From contig JAHBXZ010000015.1 of the NCBI GenBank assembly GCA_019636215.1, positions 11,540 to 75,539 on the forward strand: a stretch of DNA of 64,000 nt, written 5' to 3'. Under the pieces are notes generated by a model. The model had not been told where the DNA came from, did no database searches, and saw only the letters and a list, made by a program, of their open reading frames with translations. The position numbers were made by a program, and so were the translations under genes. This DNA comes from Planctomycetota bacterium (GTDB lineage: Bacteria; Planctomycetota; UBA8742; UBA2392). Shown piece by piece: positions 2,661 through 13,378 of the stretch (the stretch's first letter is position 1; each line of letters starts with the position of its first letter).

Positions 2661-5600
2661 TCATTTGCGCAGCCCCTTGAGGCGTTCGATCTGGGCACGG
2701 AACTCGTCGGCGTCAGGATCCTTGGGCCGCAGCTTGAGGTAGAGCTCAAGGTCGGCAATCGCGGCCTCGTAGTTGCCCAGTGCCTCATGGATGTCCGCGC
2801 GCAGGGTGAACAGCGGGGGCAGGCCTTCGCCTTCCAGGGCGTACACGGCGTTGGCATCAACCAGCGCGCCGCGGGCGTCGCCCTGCTGCAGTCGCGCCCC
2901 GGCGCGGTTGATCAGGCTCACCATCTGGTCAGGTGCCAGGTCAATCGCGCGGGTGTTGTCGCGGATCGCCGCGCCCCAGTCCTCCAGGGACGCGTGAAGC
3001 GCCGCGCGCAACTGCCAGTTCGCGGCGCTGTCCGGGTCGAGGTCCAGTGCCTTGTTCACCGAGGCCATGGCCTCGCGATTGAGGCCGAGCAGCCGCTGCA
3101 CTCCGGCCAGTTCGCGGTAGGTATCGGGAATGCGCGGCATCAGCAAGATCGCGGTTTCAAAGTCCTTCATCGCCCCGTGCGGGTCAATGGGGTCACGTGC
3201 GGCGCGGGTCGCGGGCAGGGCACGGTGCTGTGCACGCGAACGCCAGGTCATCCAGTCCTTGGGTGCCAGTGCCACGGCGCGGTCATGCATTTCCAGTGCG
3301 CGGGCGTTGCGGCTTTCCCAGGTTTCGGGCCCGGGCACGACGTGAATCAGCCTGGCCCGCAGGCTGAGCGCCCGGGCGAAGTTCGGGCGTTCCGCCAGCT
3401 GCTGGTCCAGGTTCCTGGCAATCACCGTGTTCGGCATGTCGTTGAAGATCGAGTGTGCGGACTGGGCAAAGATCATGCGTGGTTCTTCTTTGTCCGGCTG
3501 CAGAGCAATGGCCTTGCGCGCCAGGGCCGAGGCCGCGACGCGGTTGCCCTGCTCCAGGTGCAGCCGTGCCAGCAGCGCCAGCCCGTCAAAGTCTTCGGGC
3601 TCCACCAGGTTGGACGGCGCGGGTACGCGGCCGACGTGCCGGCGCACGCGGACCCAGACCAGCGACTCTACGCCGTGCTTTGCCAGCAGCTTCAGCAGCG
3701 GGTCAAAGGCCGCCTCGTGCCCCATCTTGCACAGGGTGATTGCGATGCGGATCGTCACTTCCTCGTCCGACAGCGCCAGCATGAGCTCTGCCAGCGCTGG
3801 CACGGCCTGCGCAGGGGCCGCTGCCAGCAGCAGTACCTCGCTGGCGAACTCGATCTCCAGGCGGCGGCGCGCGTCCAGCACGACCCACTCGCCGGCCGTG
3901 CTGCAGACGTCGGCAAGCGCAGCAATCAGCATCTGTGCCGTCTGTTCCTCCCGCCACGGGCCGACTTCGGCGACATACAGGCGCACCTGGTCGGCATTGA
4001 CGGACACTCCCGAGTCATCTTTGCCCCGGCGGATGAAGCCCAGGATCTCGTTGATCCGTGCCGCGCGCTTGCGCTGCAACGCCTGGCGCGCCTGCAAGAG
4101 GCTGTATCGCGCGTCTGCCAGCCGCTGTTCGGGGCCGTCGGTTCCGTCCAGGATCAATTCTGCCATCGCAAAGTCGTCGTTCAGCGATGCCAGCATCACC
4201 GCCAGAAGCCGGTCTTCCAGCAGCGCGCCGGCCAGTGCCGCAAGTTCGTTTTGCGGCAGCAGGTTCTCCGCGACTCCGGCCACCGGCTCGGTGGCCAGCC
4301 GATGCAGTTCGCGCCGTGCGTTGGCGATAGCCAGCAGCCGCGCGCAAGCCTGCGAGGCCTCCGGTCGCGGGCCGTAGTAGCGCCGCTGTTCGGGCGTCCG
4401 CGCCAGCAGCGAGTGCAGCAGTTCGCGGGCCTGGCGGTCGGATTCCTTTGGCTCCAGTGCCGCAAGGCGCGAAACCGCCCCGGCCACGGCTTCCTGCCGC
4501 TGCAGAACCAGTTCCGCGCGTTCACGCTTCTGGCGTGCCTGCAGGGCCTCGCGTTCGGCCTGTTCGGCGTCGGCCCGGGCCAGTGCATCGCGCGCGGCGT
4601 CGCGCTCACGCGCGACGTTGTAGATGCTGAAGCTGATCACGGTCACCAGTGCCATCGCCGCCAGCGCGCTGACCAGCGTGGCGGCACGGTTGCGCGCCAC
4701 AAACCGCCGCGCAAGTTCCAGCGAGCTGTAGTCGTACACGCTGAGGTTGCGGCCGTCGCGAAAGGCCTGCACTTCGCGCGCCAGGGCTTCGGCACTGGGC
4801 AGGCGGACGGAACGCTCGCGCTCCATGGCGCGTTCACACAGGCGCACCAGGTCAGGCGGCGCGCCGGGACTGGCCTGGGCCAGGGGCTCCGGCCGGCCGT
4901 TGACGACCTTTTCAAGGATGGAGTCCGCTCCCATGCCCTCAAAGGGCGGGCGGCCGGACAGCAGCTCGTACAGGATCGCGCCCAGCGAATACACGTCGCT
5001 CTTTTCGTCCACCAGTTCCAGTTGCCCCCGCGCCTGCTCGGGCGGCATGTAGGCCGGGGTGCCGATTACCGTGCCGTCCACGGTGTGGCTGTCGCGCCCG
5101 TTGCGCACCAGCGACGGCGACACCCGCGCGGGCCCGGCGGTGCTTTCTTCGTTGCCCACGCGGGCAAGCCCCCAGTCCAGCACCACGGTTTCGCCGAAAC
5201 TCCCCAGCATGATGTTCTGCGGCTTCAGGTCGCGGTGAATCACGCCGCGGCTGTGCGCATACGCAATCGCGTGACACACGGCCAGGAAGGACTCGATCAG
5301 CTGCAGGCGCATGGCGCGCTTGTCGGTGTCCGGGCGGCCGCTGTGGCGGATCTCGGCCAGCTTCTCGGCCAGGCTGCGGCCACGCACCAGCTTCATGGTG
5401 TAGAAGATGCTGCCGTCGTCGCGCCGGCAGATTTCATACACCGGCACGATGTTCGGGTGTTCCAGTTGGCCGGTTACTTTGGCTTCGCGAACAAAGCGTT
5501 CCACGGCCTGGGGATTGGGGTCGCTGCGCGCGCCCGAGCTGCCCTCGTGGGGGCCAAGGACTTCTTTCAACGCGACTTCGCGGCCCACGGCGGTGTCCAC

Positions 5601-6182
5601 GGCCACCAGGATGCGGCCCATGCCGCCGCGGGCGAACTCGCGCTTGATGGCATAGCGCCCGGCACCGCTGACAGGCAGTTGCGCGCGCAGTTCTTCCAGC
5701 CGCCCGCGCGCGACATCCGTCAGCGCCGCGCGGGCGCGCGTCTTGGCATCGCTGGCACCGGGCCGCAGCGAAAGCAGGGACTCAGCCTGCTGTTCGGAAA
5801 GGCCCAAGCCCTGCAGTGCCGAGCCACCCTGCTGCATCAGCGCATCCAGTTCCACGGTGAGGGTGCCGACATCGGCCCCGGGGTTGATGGCCAGCACAGT
5901 GCCGAAGTCGTCGGGGCTGGCCGGTGCGGGCGCGGCGGGGACGGGCGCGGCAGGCGCTGGCGTGTGGACTGGTGCGGGTGGGGCGTCCATAACGCCGTCA
6001 AGCATGGACATGGCGTCATCGGGAGAGATAAAGCCGCGTTTTACGGCCAGCACCGCGGCCAGCACGGCGCGGCGGCGTGATTCAGCGTCGTCGTTGCCGG
6101 TCATGACGGGCTCCGGGCGGTTGCCGCGCATCGGCAATAGTGTGGGGCGGCCTTTGCGGGGTTGCGAAGGCAGGATAAACAA
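2661..6182 (-). CDS. Ser/Thr protein kinase with a TM segment and long HEAT/TPR C-terminal region
   Basis: 1173-aa ORF with Hanks kinase motifs (VALKEV, HRDLKPQNIML, DWGLA, GTPAYMPPE). A hydrophobic segment (TLVSALAAMALVTVISFSIY) follows, then TPR-like repeats to the C-terminus. Start is uncertain (alternatives at 6131 and 6104). Confidence 0.9.
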   Translation of the reverse strand: MFILPSQPRKGRPTLLPMRGNRPEPVMTGNDDAESRRRAVLAAVLAVKRGFISPDDAMSMLDGVMDAPPAPVHTPAPAAPVPAAPAPASPDDFGTVLAINPGADVGTLTVELDALMQQGGSALQGLGLSEQQAESLLSLRPGASDAKTRARAALTDVARGRLEELRAQLPVSGAGRYAIKREFARGGMGRILVAVDTAVGREVALKEVLGPHEGSSGARSDPNPQAVERFVREAKVTGQLEHPNIVPVYEICRRDDGSIFYTMKLVRGRSLAEKLAEIRHSGRPDTDKRAMRLQLIESFLAVCHAIAYAHSRGVIHRDLKPQNIMLGSFGETVVLDWGLARVGNEESTAGPARVSPSLVRNGRDSHTVDGTVIGTPAYMPPEQARGQLELVDEKSDVYSLGAILYELLSGRPPFEGMGADSILEKVVNGRPEPLAQASPGAPPDLVRLCERAMERERSVRLPSAEALAREVQAFRDGRNLSVYDYSSLELARRFVARNRAATLVSALAAMALVTVISFSIYNVARERDAARDALARADAEQAEREALQARQKRERAELVLQRQEAVAGAVSRLAALEPKESDRQARELLHSLLARTPEQRRYYGPRPEASQACARLLAIANARRELHRLATEPVAGVAENLLPQNELAALAGALLEDRLLAVMLASLNDDFAMAELILDGTDGPEQRLADARYSLLQARQALQRKRAARINEILGFIRRGKDDSGVSVNADQVRLYVAEVGPWREEQTAQMLIAALADVCSTAGEWVVLDARRRLEIEFASEVLLLAAAPAQAVPALAELMLALSDEEVTIRIAITLCKMGHEAAFDPLLKLLAKHGVESLVWVRVRRHVGRVPAPSNLVEPEDFDGLALLARLHLEQGNRVAASALARKAIALQPDKEEPRMIFAQSAHSIFNDMPNTVIARNLDQQLAERPNFARALSLRARLIHVVPGPETWESRNARALEMHDRAVALAPKDWMTWRSRAQHRALPATRAARDPIDPHGAMKDFETAILLMPRIPDTYRELAGVQRLLGLNREAMASVNKALDLDPDSAANWQLRAALHASLEDWGAAIRDNTRAIDLAPDQMVSLINRAGARLQQGDARGALVDANAVYALEGEGLPPLFTLRADIHEALGNYEAAIADLELYLKLRPKDPDADEFRAQIERLKGLRK

Positions 6183-7592: not shown

Positions 7593-8108
7593 TTATGTGA
7601 AGTTCGAGGCCTCGCAAAGGCCTGTGCTTGTAATCGCAGCGGGTGCCAGAAACGCGCCACCCAGACCGCAACTGCCGGGCTGTTCTGTTGGCGGCACCAG
7701 GCGATAGGTTTTGCCATCGGCGCTCAGGCCTGTGGCGTCGCCGAACACTTCCACCCGCGTGGCCGTGGGCACGGCAAAGATGGTCAGGAAGCTGGGTTTT
7801 TCGACGTCGGCAATGATGGTCCACCCCACCATGTAACTCTGGAAATCCGCGCTTTCGTCGGTGAAGCCCGTGACCGTCAGGAACGGCACGTAATCCGGGT
7901 CATCGGTCCAGTTGCCGCCCGTCGTGTTGTCGCCGGTGTGGAAGTCATAGACCACAAACCCCTGGTTCTGCCCGTTCAGCGCCGCATACACCGGGGCCAA
8001 AGCCCCGCCCACATCGGCCACCACAACCGTGCTGGAGGTAGTGTCATCCACCCGCGCCGTGATGTAACGGTCGCCCGTGCTGCCCGGCCTTGAGGTCAGC
8101 AGTTCCAT
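7593..8108 (-). CDS. Toxin-less paralogue of the N-terminal domain of the RHS-core toxin (9654-10065), with a short unique 33-aa tail
   Basis: From MELLTSRPGSTGDRYITARV... to ...DATGLSADGKTYRLV it is ~85-90% identical to residues 4-140 of ORF 8650..10074. Homology starts exactly at the ATG (8108 versus 10065). The ORF track extends to 8141. Confidence 0.65.
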   Translation of the reverse strand: MELLTSRPGSTGDRYITARVDDTTSSTVVVADVGGALAPVYAALNGQNQGFVVYDFHTGDNTTGGNWTDDPDYVPFLTVTGFTDESADFQSYMVGWTIIADVEKPSFLTIFAVPTATRVEVFGDATGLSADGKTYRLVPPTEQPGSCGLGGAFLAPAAITSTGLCEASNFT

Positions 8109-8243
8109 TTCTGTCACCCGTCTGCTCGGTTCAACAAACAAAGTAGCCTGACGCCGTTAACCGCACTTCGTCAACGGGTTCGACAGACGCTTGACTGCGA
8201 TCCGTTGACCGCTACCAGTTTTCATGCGCTAAAGATGTCCTGA

Positions 8244-8729
8244 CTACGATTGCGGCTCTGTTGCACCGGCGCGAATCTCGCGCAACTTCTCGGTTACGCG
8301 AGTTCCAAAGTCGCTGAGGCTCTCATTCGGGTCCTCGATAAGTATGTCCCCGTTTTCTCGGCGAAGGACAAACTTTGGTGGATCACCCGAATACCGATCA
8401 ACGACAAATCGCTGTACGACCGTGCGGGCGGATTGATTGCCGTCACTGTGGCGCACCAAAACAAACTCCAAGGGGAAGGAGCCCCTATGGACCAGTTGCC
8501 CGATTTCAGCTTCCGAAAGAAGCGCGTCTGAGTTGTCAGGATGAGCCAGTACGAATCCCACAGCCTGTTTTGGTATGTGTGCAGAACTAGCGCACGCAAC
8601 ACCAGAAACAAGGAGCAGGACCAGGAATGCGCAAGTCTGAATTGCACGCCTATCTAAGCCATGCGTCAACGCCGGCATCGTGAATCTCCTGAGCTTTGCG
8701 ATTAATGTTAGTACGGTCTGCTCCTTCAA
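8244..8729 (-). CDS. Candidate immunity protein (lipoprotein-type signal peptide)
   Basis: 161-aa ORF immediately downstream of, and overlapping, the toxin 3' end (an alternative start at 8678 still overlaps). Signal/lipobox-like FLVLLLVSGVAC|ASS. Low GC like the toxin C-terminal module. Confidence 0.6.
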   Translation of the reverse strand: MKEQTVLTLIAKLRRFTMPALTHGLDRRAIQTCAFLVLLLVSGVACASSAHIPKQAVGFVLAHPDNSDALLSEAEIGQLVHRGSFPLEFVLVRHSDGNQSARTVVQRFVVDRYSGDPPKFVLRRENGDILIEDPNESLSDFGTRVTEKLREIRAGATEPQS

Positions 8730-10065
8730 GTACCACTTCTGTCGACCCGTCTGCCTTGATGCGTTTCAGAGTCTCTTTGTCTGTATCGCCGATCCACTCC
8801 TTGTAAGCCTTCCCGTAGTCACGTTGAGAGTCTCGGTCTGCACAGAGGATGCCGCCCCCGTCGGCATTGCCAAGATGCTCGTACTTGGACCTCCAGTTCA
8901 TGGGAGTCACTTTCTGCTTGGGGCCTCCGTTCTTGAAGTCAATCTCGCCTCCGATATGACCACACGTACAGGCATCACAGCCCGACGCCTCAACCTTGTA
9001 TACCTTCCATTCTTTGTCTTGGACAGTGTACTCTCGCTCCCGGCGGGAGACGATAAATCGATGAGATACAGTTGTGGCGCTTCCCTTCTGAAGGGCCGTT
9101 GTCTTTTCAACCTTCTTGGTGACCGTTAATCCTCCTCCCGCTCCCTTGTAGCTGCCTGCCAATTTGCCCGTAACCTCAGCCGAATCCGACTTAGACTCAA
9201 CATTTGTGACCTCTATCCGGGTGGACTTCTCGATTACGTCCACATCGGACTCGCGTGACACTCCAGTGGCTATGGCGCTCGACCACTTTCGCGGTGCTCG
9301 CTGGAAGCCTAGGTCTGTGATCGTGCACTCCAGTCCTGTTGCATCCACGAGTTGATTTGCACGGAGCATGCAGTAATCCCACAGATTCCCCCATGGCGTC
9401 GCCGCCGGGTCGGGCGTGGTCCACCGGCCCATGAACACGTCGTAGGTGCGGTTCCAGCAGTAGCAGGTGCCCAGCTCGTTGATGCCACCCTGGGCGCCGG
9501 TGGTGCTGCCGCCGCTTTCGTGGCCGACTTGTGGGGGCACGTACTGATAGCCAGACCACAGCCACTGGCAGCCGCGGTTGTTGGCGCGTTTGCTCAGCAC
9601 TGTGTTGGGTTTGCTCAAGGCCCCGGTCGTCGGGTCCACGCCCGGGGGTGCGACCAGGCGATAAGTTTTGCCATCAGCGCCCAAGCCGGTGGCGTCGCCG
9701 AACACTTCCACCCGCGTGGCCGTGGGCACGGCAAAGATGGTCAGGAAGCTGGGTTTTTCAACGTCGGCAATGATTGTCCACCCCACCATGTAACTCTGGA
9801 AATCCGCGTTTTCGTCGGTGAAGCGGGTGACATTCAGAAACGGCAAGTGGTTCGGGTCATCGGTCCACTCGCCGCCGGTCGTGTTGTCGCCGGTGTAGAA
9901 GTCATAGACCACAAACCCCTGGGTCTGCCCGTTCAGGGCCGCATACACCGGGGCCGAAGCCCCGCCCACATCGGCCACCACAATCGTGCTGGAGGTGGTG
10001 TCACTCACCCGCGCCGTGATGTAACGGTCGCCCGTGCTGCCCGGCCTTGAGATCACCAGTTCCAT
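8650..10065 (-). CDS. Polymorphic toxin: novel N-terminal domain plus RHS-repeat-associated core motif plus unrecognised ~226-aa C-terminal toxin domain
   Basis: YCWNRTYDVFMGRWTTPDPAATPWGNLWDYCMLRANQLVDATGLE matches the RHS core consensus (RYYDPxxGRFxxxDP...NLYxY...DPxGL). There are no YD repeats upstream. GC drops sharply right after DATGL (9331-9345). The ORF track start is 10074 (MARMEL...). Confidence 0.8.
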   Translation of the reverse strand: MELVISRPGSTGDRYITARVSDTTSSTIVVADVGGASAPVYAALNGQTQGFVVYDFYTGDNTTGGEWTDDPNHLPFLNVTRFTDENADFQSYMVGWTIIADVEKPSFLTIFAVPTATRVEVFGDATGLGADGKTYRLVAPPGVDPTTGALSKPNTVLSKRANNRGCQWLWSGYQYVPPQVGHESGGSTTGAQGGINELGTCYCWNRTYDVFMGRWTTPDPAATPWGNLWDYCMLRANQLVDATGLECTITDLGFQRAPRKWSSAIATGVSRESDVDVIEKSTRIEVTNVESKSDSAEVTGKLAGSYKGAGGGLTVTKKVEKTTALQKGSATTVSHRFIVSRREREYTVQDKEWKVYKVEASGCDACTCGHIGGEIDFKNGGPKQKVTPMNWRSKYEHLGNADGGGILCADRDSQRDYGKAYKEWIGDTDKETLKRIKADGSTEVVLEGADRTNINRKAQEIHDAGVDAWLR

Positions 10066-10259
10066 GCGTGCCATCCATCTGGCTGGTCTAAACTGGTAGG
10101 CGTCCGGACGATTCTAAAGGCCCGCGATTACGTGTCCCTCAATGCCCGAAGTCGGCGATGAAGTCGCCTAACTTCTAGAACCAATGAGAGGTTTGTCACC
10201 GCCAGCAGCGACGCAAGGACATATATGCCCCATTCCGATACGTATTCCATGGCTCCCGA

Positions 10260-10814
10260 TCACTCCCCCCAATGTGACTTCCATTGACCACGCATGTATC
10301 CAGGGACAGCCGATGCGGAATTGCTGCTCCGACTGTCGACCTCTGATTTGCCAAGATCCTCATCCCAGCTTCTTGGTTGTCCACCTGCACTTTCAATCTG
10401 ACCCGGACCGCCTTTGCACCGTCGATATGGGCATCTTGATGCATTGAGGCAATTGTACTGCCTGTCCGCCTCGTCTTTCGATGCAGCGAACGTGTACCTT
10501 GCAAACTTGGTCCATTGATTCTCCCAAGAATACGTAGTAACGCCGCCAACAACAGTCCACTTTTCATCCCATATGCGTCGCTCTCGGGTCAGCTCTTTTA
10601 CCAGGTCCCATACACCGAGACCCAGCCCACCAATGGCGACGATTGCCTCAAGCAATCTGCGAAGCGGGTTCTTATCTATAATGACTGCGACCAAAGCGAC
10701 AGCTCCGAACACTAAAGGGGTCAGGCTACTTTGTTTCGTCTGATTGACTGGCGGTTGTGAAGGTGACGCTCCTTGGCCGGTCGGTGTTTCAGGACTTCCG
10801 GTTGTGGGTGCCAT
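10260..10814 (-). CDS. Hypothetical membrane protein (low-GC island)
   Basis: 184-aa ORF with a Pro/Gly/Thr-rich N-terminus and two hydrophobic helices (LVFGAVALVAVII; AIVAIGGLGLGVW). It lies directly upstream of the toxin gene on the same strand. Confidence 0.5.
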   Translation of the reverse strand: MAPTTGSPETPTGQGASPSQPPVNQTKQSSLTPLVFGAVALVAVIIDKNPLRRLLEAIVAIGGLGLGVWDLVKELTRERRIWDEKWTVVGGVTTYSWENQWTKFARYTFAASKDEADRQYNCLNASRCPYRRCKGGPGQIESAGGQPRSWDEDLGKSEVDSRSSNSASAVPGYMRGQWKSHWGE

Positions 10815-10849: not shown

Positions 10850-11400
10850 CCGTGACACCGCGGCCTGCATTCTACCCGGGCCTGAGGCCGCGTGCCAAGC
10901 TAACCGCGGTCCGGGCAGTGCCTCAGGTTGACCCACAGTCCGGGCGCAAGGCCGAGGGGCGGCGCTTGCCATGGCGTCGCCCCCGCCCTGGCAGGCGGGG
11001 CTGTCGGCGGCCCAAAGTCCATCGAGACACTTCCTGCGCCCCCTGGGGCGCGGGCACGGGGAACGCCGCATCCCCACGGCTGAAGCCGTGGGCGAGATTC
11101 CCGCGCCACTCCGTGGCCAAGGGCCTGCCTTGGGTTGTTGCCAAACCAACCAAGCAGGCCCGGGCAGTGGTGCCGGAGCTTGCCGTACTCTGTCGCCCCT
11201 GCCGGGGCTTGGGTTGGGTGAGGCCTGTTTCCCCGGGCTTCCGCCCGGGGCTACGTTCTGTCGGCCCAGTGGGCCTAAAGGATGTAAGGGCTTGTCCTGA
11301 GCCTGTCGAAGGGCGCTTCGTGCGCCTGTTCGCTGACCCTTCCCTTTCGCCAAGGCTTCTGCCGGCGGGTGGGGCTCTGGTTGGTGACGTGCGGTTTGGA
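10850..11400. repeat. Cluster of GC-rich REP-like palindromic units
   Basis: Non-coding stretch with hairpins such as CCCACGGC-TGAA-GCCGTGGG (11073-11092). Motifs include GGGCTACGTTCTGTCGGCCC and CCTGAGCCTGTCGAAGGGC, of the kind that produce spurious ...ATFCRPSGPKG... and ...PEPVEGR... ORFs in GC-rich genomes. Confidence 0.5.
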
Positions 11401-11406
11401 TTTCGG

Positions 11407-13191
11407 TCAGTGGTTGGTGCCGAACTCGGTGGTCATCAGCAGGGCGAACAGCAGGTCTTCGGCGGCCTGGGGTTTGTTGCCGTTGGCGGCCATGAAGTCG
11501 CCGGCGCGCCTGGCCTCGGCCTCGGTCGGTCGGCGAGACAGCACGTGCAGGTAAACGGCCTCGATGCGCCTGTCAGCGGCGAACTCGCGGGTGATGCGGC
11601 CCAGCAGGCCTTCGGGCGTATTGGCAGCAAGCCCGTTGGTGAACGCGCCGTTGAGCACCAGCAGGGCCTGGTCAATGCTGCCGGTGAAGCCCTCGCTGGC
11701 GTTCATTTCGTCGTCCTGGCTCAGTGCCGCAAAGCGCCCGGCGCCAAAGCGGGTGATGTAGGTGCGCGCCGGAATGGCCTTGAAGCCCTTGCTGAACTTG
11801 TCCCAGGCCTGCAGGTCGTACTTGTAGCGCGGGCGGTTGGGCTCGACCTTGCCTTCGTCGGCGGCCTGTTTGTTCCTGGCCAGTTCAGCGGCGAAGCGGT
11901 CCAGTGCGGCGTCGCGGGACTGCTTGACGTTGTCGGCGATCTGCCTGTCGCTCATCAGGTTCAGCAGCGCGCCGATGAACTGGTCGGCAGAAAGTTGCCG
12001 CACCGGGTAGGCCGCGAAGTGCCAGGGCTGGGCCTTTTTGTCGGCCCCTGCACTGGAAAGCTGGTAGGCGCGCGAGTTCAGCATTGCGCGGTACAGCGCG
12101 CGCAGGTTCCAGCCGCTGTCGCGCAGCAGGTCGGCCAGCCAGTCCAGCAGCTCGGGGTGGCTGGCGCTATTGACGGGCGTGAAGTCGTCCACCGGGTTCA
12201 CGATGCCGCTGCCGAACGCGAAGCTCCACAGCCGGTTGGCGACATAGCGCCGGGTCTGGATGTTGTCGTCGCTTACCAGCCAGTCGGCGTAGGTGGTGCG
12301 CCATGATGCGGCGTCTTTGTGCTCGGCCTTGGCGCCGTCGGGCGTGCTGGGCTGGATGAAGCGCCAGTAGGTCTCGACCTGTTCGCGCTGGTCAGCGCGC
12401 AGGGTCATGCGTTTGTTGTAAAGGTCCACCACACGTTTCACGGCGCCTGGTTCCTCAAACACAAAAGCCCGGGCAGGCTGAATGCCGTTGTCCACCTGGG
12501 CGCGGGTGACGGCAAACCAGCTGGCGTAGCCCTCAAAGACTTTCTGGGTCAGCGCCGGGTCATAGTGGTGGTCGTGGCACTGGGCGCACTGGATCTGCAC
12601 CCCGCGCAGGCCGCGCGAAAGCTTGCCTACAAGGTCGGCCAGCTGGATGCCCTGGCCGTCGGCAAAGTAAGGCACAATCGCGGGGTTGTCGGCAAGGTCG
12701 CCCTGTGCTGTGACAATCCGCCGCATGATCTTGTCAAAGCCGGTGCCGTTGTTCAGTTCGCCCGCAATCCAGCTGGCAAACCACTGGTTGCCCGAAAGCG
12801 GGTTGCCGTCGCGGTTGGAAAGCAGCAGCGCCCACTGGGTGCCGAAGTGCTGGCCCCAGCGCGGGTCCATCAACAGGTCGTTGATCAGCCGCGCACGCTT
12901 GTCGGGGGCCCGGTCATCAAGGAAGGCCAGGGCCTCGGCATAGCTGGGCGGCGCGCCCACGGTGTCCAGGTACACGCGGCGCAGGAACTCCTCGTCGCTG
13001 GCGGGTTTGGCGGGCTTGATGCCGTCGCGTGCCCAGACGCGGGCGATCTCGGCGTCAATGGAAAGGGGCGCGGGTTCGGCGCGGGTGTTGCCGGCATCGG
13101 CCTGTGGCGCGGGGGCATCCTGGGCCAAGGAGATGGCCGCACCGCAACAAAGCAGACAGCCAAGGGCGCTCAACGCCAGCAGGGTACGCAT
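11407..13191 (-). CDS. DUF1549/DUF1553 domain protein (planctomycete PSD-type)
   Basis: 594 aa with a signal peptide. FLRRVYLDTVGAPPSYAEALAFLDD is the DUF1549 signature. QCAQCHDHHYDP is present, with a DUF1553-like C-terminal half. Confidence 0.9.
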   Translation of the reverse strand: MRTLLALSALGCLLCCGAAISLAQDAPAPQADAGNTRAEPAPLSIDAEIARVWARDGIKPAKPASDEEFLRRVYLDTVGAPPSYAEALAFLDDRAPDKRARLINDLLMDPRWGQHFGTQWALLLSNRDGNPLSGNQWFASWIAGELNNGTGFDKIMRRIVTAQGDLADNPAIVPYFADGQGIQLADLVGKLSRGLRGVQIQCAQCHDHHYDPALTQKVFEGYASWFAVTRAQVDNGIQPARAFVFEEPGAVKRVVDLYNKRMTLRADQREQVETYWRFIQPSTPDGAKAEHKDAASWRTTYADWLVSDDNIQTRRYVANRLWSFAFGSGIVNPVDDFTPVNSASHPELLDWLADLLRDSGWNLRALYRAMLNSRAYQLSSAGADKKAQPWHFAAYPVRQLSADQFIGALLNLMSDRQIADNVKQSRDAALDRFAAELARNKQAADEGKVEPNRPRYKYDLQAWDKFSKGFKAIPARTYITRFGAGRFAALSQDDEMNASEGFTGSIDQALLVLNGAFTNGLAANTPEGLLGRITREFAADRRIEAVYLHVLSRRPTEAEARRAGDFMAANGNKPQAAEDLLFALLMTTEFGTNH

Positions 13192-13336
13192 GGGAATCTC
13201 CGTGCCCGGTTATTGTGACTTGGAACCAGGGGATTTCGCCGGGAAAAGGCGATGGCGCGACCGAGAATGGCCGCGCGGACCTGTCGCCATGTGACGTGGC
13301 ATCGGCGTCCCGCCGATGCGTCTGCAGGCGCGTCCC

Positions 13337-13378
13337 GCCCCTGCCCCTGCCCCTGCCCCTGCCCCTGCCCCTGCCCCT
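13337..13378. repeat. Perfect hexanucleotide microsatellite (GCCCCT)x7
   Basis: Read directly at 13337-13378, in the divergent intergenic region between the DUF1549 gene start (13191) and the proS start (13672). Confidence 0.97.

Follow-up and report, generated by a model that had tools for sequence, protein, structure and literature searches.

The stretch of DNA analysed here (the window) comprises 64,000 nucleotides of a Planctomycetota bacterium, positions 11,540 to 75,539 of contig JAHBXZ010000015.1 (C7 below) in an assembly of 34 contigs that is 91% complete (GCA_019636215.1, here G000). Positions 7593 to 10814 form a low-GC island whose central open reading frame (ORF) encodes the C-terminal end of an RHS protein, composed of a beta-rich domain, an autoprotease plug and a variable tip. 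This ORF overlaps a downstream ORF for a candidate immunity protein, which is followed by a truncated second copy of the conserved part of the module (Table 1). A preliminary description, made by reading the sequence, had presented the pair as a minimal RHS-core polymorphic toxin with a periplasm-directed antidote. The gene callers start the toxin ORF at MELVIS (10065), which gives a product of 471 aa.

Table 1. Features of the island, in window coordinates
Feature	Position	Strand	Remark
Beheaded Rhs C-terminal module, 474 aa	8650..10074	-	residues 4-250 homologous to the C-terminal end of 3,700-5,500-aa RHS frames
Promoter-like site GGGACA-16-TAGAAT	10111..10138	-	37 nt 5' of the ATG at 10074; consensus scan only
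Lineage-specific beta-rich insert domain, residues 4-140	9653..10065	-	G-D-A-x-x-L at 126-131; alignment A1; upstream copy of the direct repeat
Linker and Rhs plug / aspartyl autoprotease core, residues 141-248	9331..9652	-	partial TIGR03696 match; profile matches to the plugs of Rhs, YenC2, TccC3 and Tse5
DATGL, variant of the DPxGL autocleavage motif, residues 244-248	9331..9345	-	aligned with relatives and YenC2
Variable toxin tip, residues 249-474 (226 aa), GC 0.54	8650..9330	-	without detectable relatives
Immunity candidate, 144-161 aa, N-terminal export signal	8244..8729	-	ATG at 8678 the likelier start
Low-GC ORF, 184 aa, two hydrophobic segments	10260..10814	-	unique to G000 among 23 family genomes
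3'-truncated second copy of the conserved block	7593..8141	-	DNA 7696-8124 against 9653-10081, 91.6%
REP-like (repetitive extragenic palindrome-like) motif copy (AAAAGGGGTCAGGCTACTTTGTT)	8136..8159		24-nt inverted repeat with 10713-10736
REP-like motif, second, inverted copy	10713..10736		pairs with 8136-8159

The RHS core recognised in the preliminary description is borne out by profile comparison. TIGR03696 matches residues 200-248 with model positions 27-76 (NCBIfam; E 2e-5, 25 bits), which falls below the model's cut-off of 32.5 bits; the full-length RHS protein encoded on contig C2 of the same genome is likewise matched only over positions 28-76, yet reaches 49 bits and passes it. A profile of the conserved block, built from alignment A1 (16 rows: this protein and 15 relatives), matches the C-terminal plugs of solved Rhs, TcC and Tse5 proteins in the PDB (7q97, E 9e-8; YenC2, 2e-7; TccC3, 4e-7). 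The alignment partners of R209, D222 and D244 are R650, D663 and D686 of YenC2, which we take to be the catalytic residues of its autoprotease. Profile matches and catalytic residues are concordant, and on these alignments the plug is a true Rhs plug. The counterparts of DATGL, which lies exactly where it had been placed, are DPSGL, DSSGL, DPTGL, DASGL and DPDGL in the relatives and DPDGM in YenC2. Because the plug aligns with that of YenC2, whose solved chain (4igl_B) stops at residue 690, directly behind DPDGM, self-cleavage is predicted to occur after L248. A second DATGL, also pointed out earlier, is indeed present at residues 127-131, within the conserved G-D-A-x-x-L motif of the beta domain, but its likeness to the autocleavage site does not persist in the family. 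Its T and G positions vary (HN, ST, DT and AA in aligned relatives), so nothing suggests cleavage there, and we rejected it as a cleavage site.

Both the shell and the means of delivery are absent from the ORF, as had been noted. The Pfam scan of the frame gave zero matches, including none to RHS_repeat (PF05593), which indicates that there is no YD-repeat shell; matches to PF05593 in G000 are confined to contigs C2, C10, C16 and C30. The first 40 residues are without a hydrophobic segment that could serve as a signal peptide, and neither Pfam nor NCBIfam detects PAAR or any other secretion or trafficking domain. Moreover, no plug-less shell or RHS-repeat gene adjoins the ORF in the window region, no signal peptide is carried by the cartridge, and no transglutaminase-like partner was found in the island.

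The N-terminal domain, in contrast, is not the separate unrecognised domain that it had been taken for. It is homologous to a beta domain that lies inside giant RHS proteins encoded in the same genus and family, among them the RHS protein on C2 (a frame of 5,273 aa with the conserved block in its C-terminal region) and one in the same-genus genome G001, where the block is 67% identical and stands at the C-terminal end of an RHS protein of ~3,774-3,789 aa. In these full-length relatives the domain is placed behind the last YD repeat and ahead of the plug, and is preceded by the sequence Y-x-Y-T-D-Y-G (...YDYTDYG in the C2 protein and ...YVYTDYG in that of G001). The giants bearing the block have 3,700-5,500 aa, and by inspection the C2 and G001 proteins begin with Sec-type signal peptides. 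Even the first residues of the short product, MELVISRP, are found internally in longer relatives, as ...LNGLELVISRP or ...LNGCELVISRP after YVYTDYG; in our reading of alignment A3 the ATG of this lineage arises by an 8-nt insertion relative to the RHS-internal DNA. The ORF is therefore a beheaded fragment of a giant RHS protein rather than a toxin of minimal architecture, because its N-terminal domain is homologous to an internal domain of the giants, and by the same homology that domain does not represent a new trafficking domain. Several paralogues of the first 250 residues exist in G000: the downstream truncated copy (7593-8141), two on C23, one on C1 with 32% identity, and the C-terminal region of the C2 protein. 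The AlphaFold2 (AF2) model of the domain from the 16-row alignment has beta strands at a predicted local distance difference test score (pLDDT) of 60-90, with confidence only for residues ~70-140, which are modelled as a small beta structure. A Foldseek comparison with the PDB gave no significant match, the best (E 0.06) being uninformative ATP synthase chains.

For the tip behind DATGL we found no family in Pfam, NCBIfam, PADLOC or the PDB sequences and no relative among 1.84e9 representative proteins or 5.8e9 clusters, in agreement with the initial impression that it fits no recognised toxin family; its single-sequence AF2 model (pLDDT 35) is unusable. The fall in GC content that had been noticed is real (0.671 in the linker and core, 0.540 in the C-terminal domain, 0.547 in the immunity ORF and 0.533 in the ORF at 10260-10814, compared with 0.648 in the window), but it does not set in right after DATGL: it begins ~11 codons earlier, at NLWDY, where homology to the paralogues breaks off. 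Both the tip and the immunity candidate appear to have arrived by horizontal transfer. When started at the ATG at 8678, the immunity candidate has an overlap of 29 nt with the toxin ORF. At the N-terminus this protein has a strong hydrophobic segment (CAFLVLLLVSGVACA), so the export signal ascribed to it stands, but its assignment as a lipoprotein is less secure, since the lipobox is loose (G-V-A-C) and, by motif reading, cleavage by signal peptidase I between A-C-A and S fits equally well. No homologue of it was found in the 5.8e9 clusters or in the 23 family genomes. This protein is the probable antidote for the tip, and its apparent export suggests a target of the toxin in the envelope or periplasm.

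The conserved block was searched for in 41 related genomes and found in 24. There, 79 matches extend as far as the plug; the frame that contains them is 1,800 aa or longer in 23 cases and shorter than 900 aa in 55. The 5' limits of homology in the short frames are scattered over residues 1-205 without a single boundary, and 15 of the 55 are situated within 25 kb of a long frame; in G013, for instance, a 3,946-aa gene is followed by six short modules on both strands. The search of 1.84e9 representative proteins returned 233 matches to the ORF, and placements and lengths were read from the 150 listed: every best match among these falls inside residues 2-301, truncation varies in the same way, and the matches listed include a small number of giants, the longest with 5,962 aa. 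Internal stops occur in the modules of several relatives. The scattered truncation points match the pattern of orphan rhs-CT (C-terminal) modules. One stand-alone short module of G013 (locus L016, G013:C1:1336000-1344000; 2726-6015) lies between two paralogous secreted proteins of ~320 aa, each with a Cys-containing hydrophobic C-terminal tail that resembles a sorting signal. Leucine-rich-repeat (LRR) proteins are recurrently encoded next after Rhs modules (G000 C23 35274-36794; locus L024 6608-7912 and 9430-10740; locus L014 on G001 contig C6), and they probably constitute a family of LRR-type immunity proteins.

Behind the conserved block the tips are highly diverse. Among nine that we compared there is only one related pair, which leaves at least eight unrelated groups, and neither six other tips that were scanned nor the one in the window match any Pfam family. 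The survey proposed in the preliminary description thus finds unrelated C-terminal domains behind the same block, and the assignment to RHS-core polymorphic toxins is upheld. Direct signs of cassette exchange come from contig C23, where the order of genes is rpoD, a CT398-like gene, a short module, its immunity candidate, a truncated block copy and a 246-aa gene. The locus is syntenic in a sister strain, with a different tip and partner gene. Between the two strains the flanking genes have synonymous divergence (dS) of 0.02-0.07, and the conserved block has dS 0.28 with mosaic identity. From the high block dS and mosaic identity amid low-dS flanks, together with the differing tip and partner, it follows, on these sequences, that recombination brought in the C23 cassette, the crossovers having occurred inside the conserved block. 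The layout of module, partner gene and 3'-truncated block copy is common to the loci on C7 (the window), C23 and C1, and is also found in the sister strain. The C1 locus (87276-90679, + strand) harbours a third headless module, 32% identical and with the last YD repeat kept; its tip contains HExxH, and it is accompanied by a lipoprotein partner of 148 aa, with LLSSC as lipobox, and by a truncated block copy. In the main RHS gene of G001 (locus L013, G001:C1, about 12790-13342) the frame changes between PWG and NLWDY, at the same point as the tip exchange, which may be either a sequencing error or a recombination scar.

A main gene of the G001 type has no orthologue in the G000 assembly. What we found instead is a relic, a 235-aa YD-repeat open frame on C30 (253803-254507, - strand), which corresponds to residues 2648-2834 of the G001 protein at 77% identity; it is wedged among unrelated genes, next to an IS200/RAYT-like gene (256899-257843) and a 698-aa gene of low GC content. 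The remaining RHS genes of G000, on C2, C10 and C16, are too divergent for recombination with the module. On C10 (12950-24878, - strand) three tandem genes of ~850-890 aa, each with a signal peptide and a different N-terminal part, have the same end (...ALGRVQQTTGRE, then stop). Downstream of them follows an RHS frame of 1,403 aa whose core is full and canonical, and the arrangement has the look of an array of N-terminal RHS alternatives; two more are present on C16. The earlier remark that planctomycetes generally lack a type VI secretion system (T6SS) does not apply to this genome, and we rejected T6SS absence: a complete cluster is present on C31 at about 187,000-210,000 (DUF3540, a pentapeptide protein, DUF2169-pentapeptide, VgrG, ClpV, TssF, TssC with 443 bits, TagF, TssM and TssL). 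A second, weaker VipB-like match lies at C29:147899-148693. For the full-length parents, Sec-dependent export is likely because the giants carry signal peptides. The puzzle of how a shell-less toxin would leave the cell, raised in the preliminary description, dissolves, as the parents are giants probably exported by Sec, and a T6SS is encoded in the genome as well.

In our judgement, the ORF and its partner are probably an orphan Rhs-CT/immunity cassette, of a type already known, that has been stranded; it would derive from the Sec-exported RHS giants of this planctomycete family. Residues ~170-248 form the plug and autoprotease, residues 249-474 would be a horizontally acquired toxin tip, and ORF 8244-8729 would encode the exported immunity protein. 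The product of the module would be unable to deliver itself, because it has neither shell nor signal peptide, and the module itself may be silent or undelivered. The cassette would maintain the immunity gene in the genome and serve as a spare warhead, since homologous recombination via the conserved block could fuse the tip to a full-length rhs gene. The downstream copy (7696-8124) might provide the second homology arm, so that the whole tip-plus-immunity cassette would be exchangeable; this copy may be either such an arm or the stump of a neighbouring module. The module would be stranded here because the matching full-length gene has been reduced to a relic.

Several observations weigh against this interpretation, and some of them argue for an autonomous shell-less toxin, in which MELVISRP modules are translated from their own ATG and act without a cocoon, either inside the cell like a toxin-antitoxin pair, as cargo that the T6SS or a different exporter carries, or after loading in trans into another RHS shell. 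The 474-aa frame is intact and keeps R209, D222 and D244, and the toxin module has an ATG of its own. That ATG stands at the same boundary in six modules from three assemblies (C7a, C7b, C23a and C23b in G000, P0157 and P0159 in others), whose upstream contexts differ. A promoter-like site lies upstream, and by consensus scan only the region has three such sites where 0.7 are expected. The conserved block has a ratio of non-synonymous to synonymous divergence (dN/dS) of 0.2-0.4, as under purifying selection, and at least four different tips are kept behind the headless form. [quoted passage not shown] We nevertheless regard autonomy as unlikely. The ORF lacks a signal peptide, PAAR or any comparable delivery domain, and its neighbourhood lacks a plug-less shell gene. 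In solved Rhs structures the plug folds within the barrel (PMC8636562), family-wide the 5' limits are scattered rather than fixed, and an exported immunity protein would leave a cytoplasmic toxin unneutralised. Recombination from elsewhere can explain the dN/dS values, and we dropped dN/dS as a test of translation, since the block is mosaic and imported and its values cannot discriminate. The bolder form of this idea would make the MELVISRP lineage a class of its own among toxins with an Rhs plug and no shell: begun by the 8-nt insertion, it would have spread and swapped at least four tips at loci without a main gene, and its products would be translated, cleave themselves without a cocoon and act internally or leave by an export route such as the T6SS or loading in trans into another RHS shell. 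This form appears to us more doubtful still.

The orphan-cassette interpretation is also burdened by the main gene, which is not on the contig of the module, and none similar enough for recombination is present in the assembly. A copy may be missing, as the assembly is 91% complete and RHS-related contig breaks exist (e.g. C16). The downstream copy retains the 5' part of the block, unlike the 3' part found in classical displaced orphans, and neither the putative toxin nor the putative immunity protein has detectable relatives. The state of the main gene could alternatively mean that the locus is a decaying wreck left by the loss of that gene, with a toxin part that no longer has a role, one or more immunity genes that are perhaps useful, and a frame that is intact through recent acquisition. 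In line with this, only a relic of the main gene exists in G000, the downstream copy has lost its 3' part, a dN/dS of 0.53 indicates relaxed constraint on the counterpart of that copy at C23, the modules of several relatives contain the internal stops mentioned above, and synteny breaks at the flanks, where REP-like repeats occur. However, the intact frame with its three catalytic residues speaks against decay, and the recent cassette exchange between close strains at the sister locus shows that such loci still take part in exchange, so that we give this alternative only a small chance. It is hardly credible that the locus is an assembly artefact, namely that a repeated Rhs segment led to a chimeric join in this metagenome-assembled genome. 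Among the 34 contigs some small ones are broken inside RHS genes (C16), but no repeat edge common to another contig coincides with the 5' boundary at 10081, and independent JGI and ENA assemblies also contain headless modules that start with MELVISRP; on these independent assemblies we rejected the artefact.

The surroundings of the cassette add a few further features. The low-GC membrane ORF described upstream, at 10260-10814, is confirmed in composition and in its two hydrophobic segments, and might conceivably be a lone immunity gene left by an earlier cassette. The 24-nt inverted repeat within the island was considered as the ends of a mobile element and rejected, as its arms are a dispersed REP-like motif (~24 nt) with six further sites in G000 (C4:178, C29:11932, C29:153280, C30:256930, C32:7119 and C32:60574). 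At four of these sites the same conserved sequence follows the motif, which at C30 is the start of the IS200/RAYT-like gene near the relic (C30 256899-257843). Copies of the motif also occur within the Rhs cassette loci of the relative G013. The genes flanking the island are ~1 Mb apart in both same-genus genomes, and the island is therefore a rearrangement point without an empty site for mapping its borders. Between the low-GC island and a DUF1549/1553-type gene, positions 10850-11400 of the window are GC-rich (0.69) and without a credible ORF, and this block contains short direct repeats (11108-11137 and 11187-11216).

If our interpretation holds, what appeared to be a new minimal Rhs toxin is a detached spare cassette, belonging to a planctomycete RHS family with a previously undescribed beta domain directly before the plug. 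The tip and its exported immunity candidate, both without detectable relatives, are raw material for toxin discovery. Furthermore, the C23 locus offers a clear natural case in which whole tip and immunity cassettes are swapped between close strains at a locus without a delivery gene, which bears on how orphan toxin cassettes persist.

Earlier work has described both orphan rhs-CT modules and how recombination with the main gene activates them (PMC3967940, PMC3150448). The orphan rhs-CT/rhsI modules of Enterobacteriaceae (Poole 2011, PMC3150448; Koskiniemi 2014, PMC3967940) resemble the cassette in the window in being fragments of the rhs 3' end that retain some of the conserved region, with a variable tip and a linked gene for an immunity protein or, in the window, a candidate for one, in missing the delivery part, in having the same block with different tips across strains, and in exchange by homologous recombination. 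Classical orphans usually lie downstream of the main gene and are without initiation signals (PMC3967940). The module here is not behind a main gene, its cognate main gene being a relic elsewhere, and it has its own ATG and a promoter-like site; both differences count against the equation of the two. In addition, its block includes the lineage-specific beta insert, the cassette is bracketed by direct repeats of the block's 5' part, and the parents are Sec-exported giants of 3,700-5,500 aa and not PAAR-Rhs proteins of the T6SS. With the full-length Rhs and TcC cocoon toxins (Rhs1 of Photorhabdus laumondii, PMC8636562; 7q97; YenC2; TccC3) it has in common the autoprotease plug and a DPxGL-type site right before the toxin, whereas the YD shell, the N-terminal plug and a trafficking domain are absent, TIGR03696 is matched only at positions 27-76, and a beta domain stands ahead of the plug. 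The adjacent plug-less shell gene and the signal peptide on the cartridge that characterise split Rhs/Tc-type systems were not found here. By analogy with the internal Rhs TA pairs of Salmonella Typhimurium (Starsta 2020, PMC7043789), a delivery-less orphan rhs could act inside its producer, but the immunity candidate here appears to be exported and thus unfit as a cytoplasmic antitoxin.

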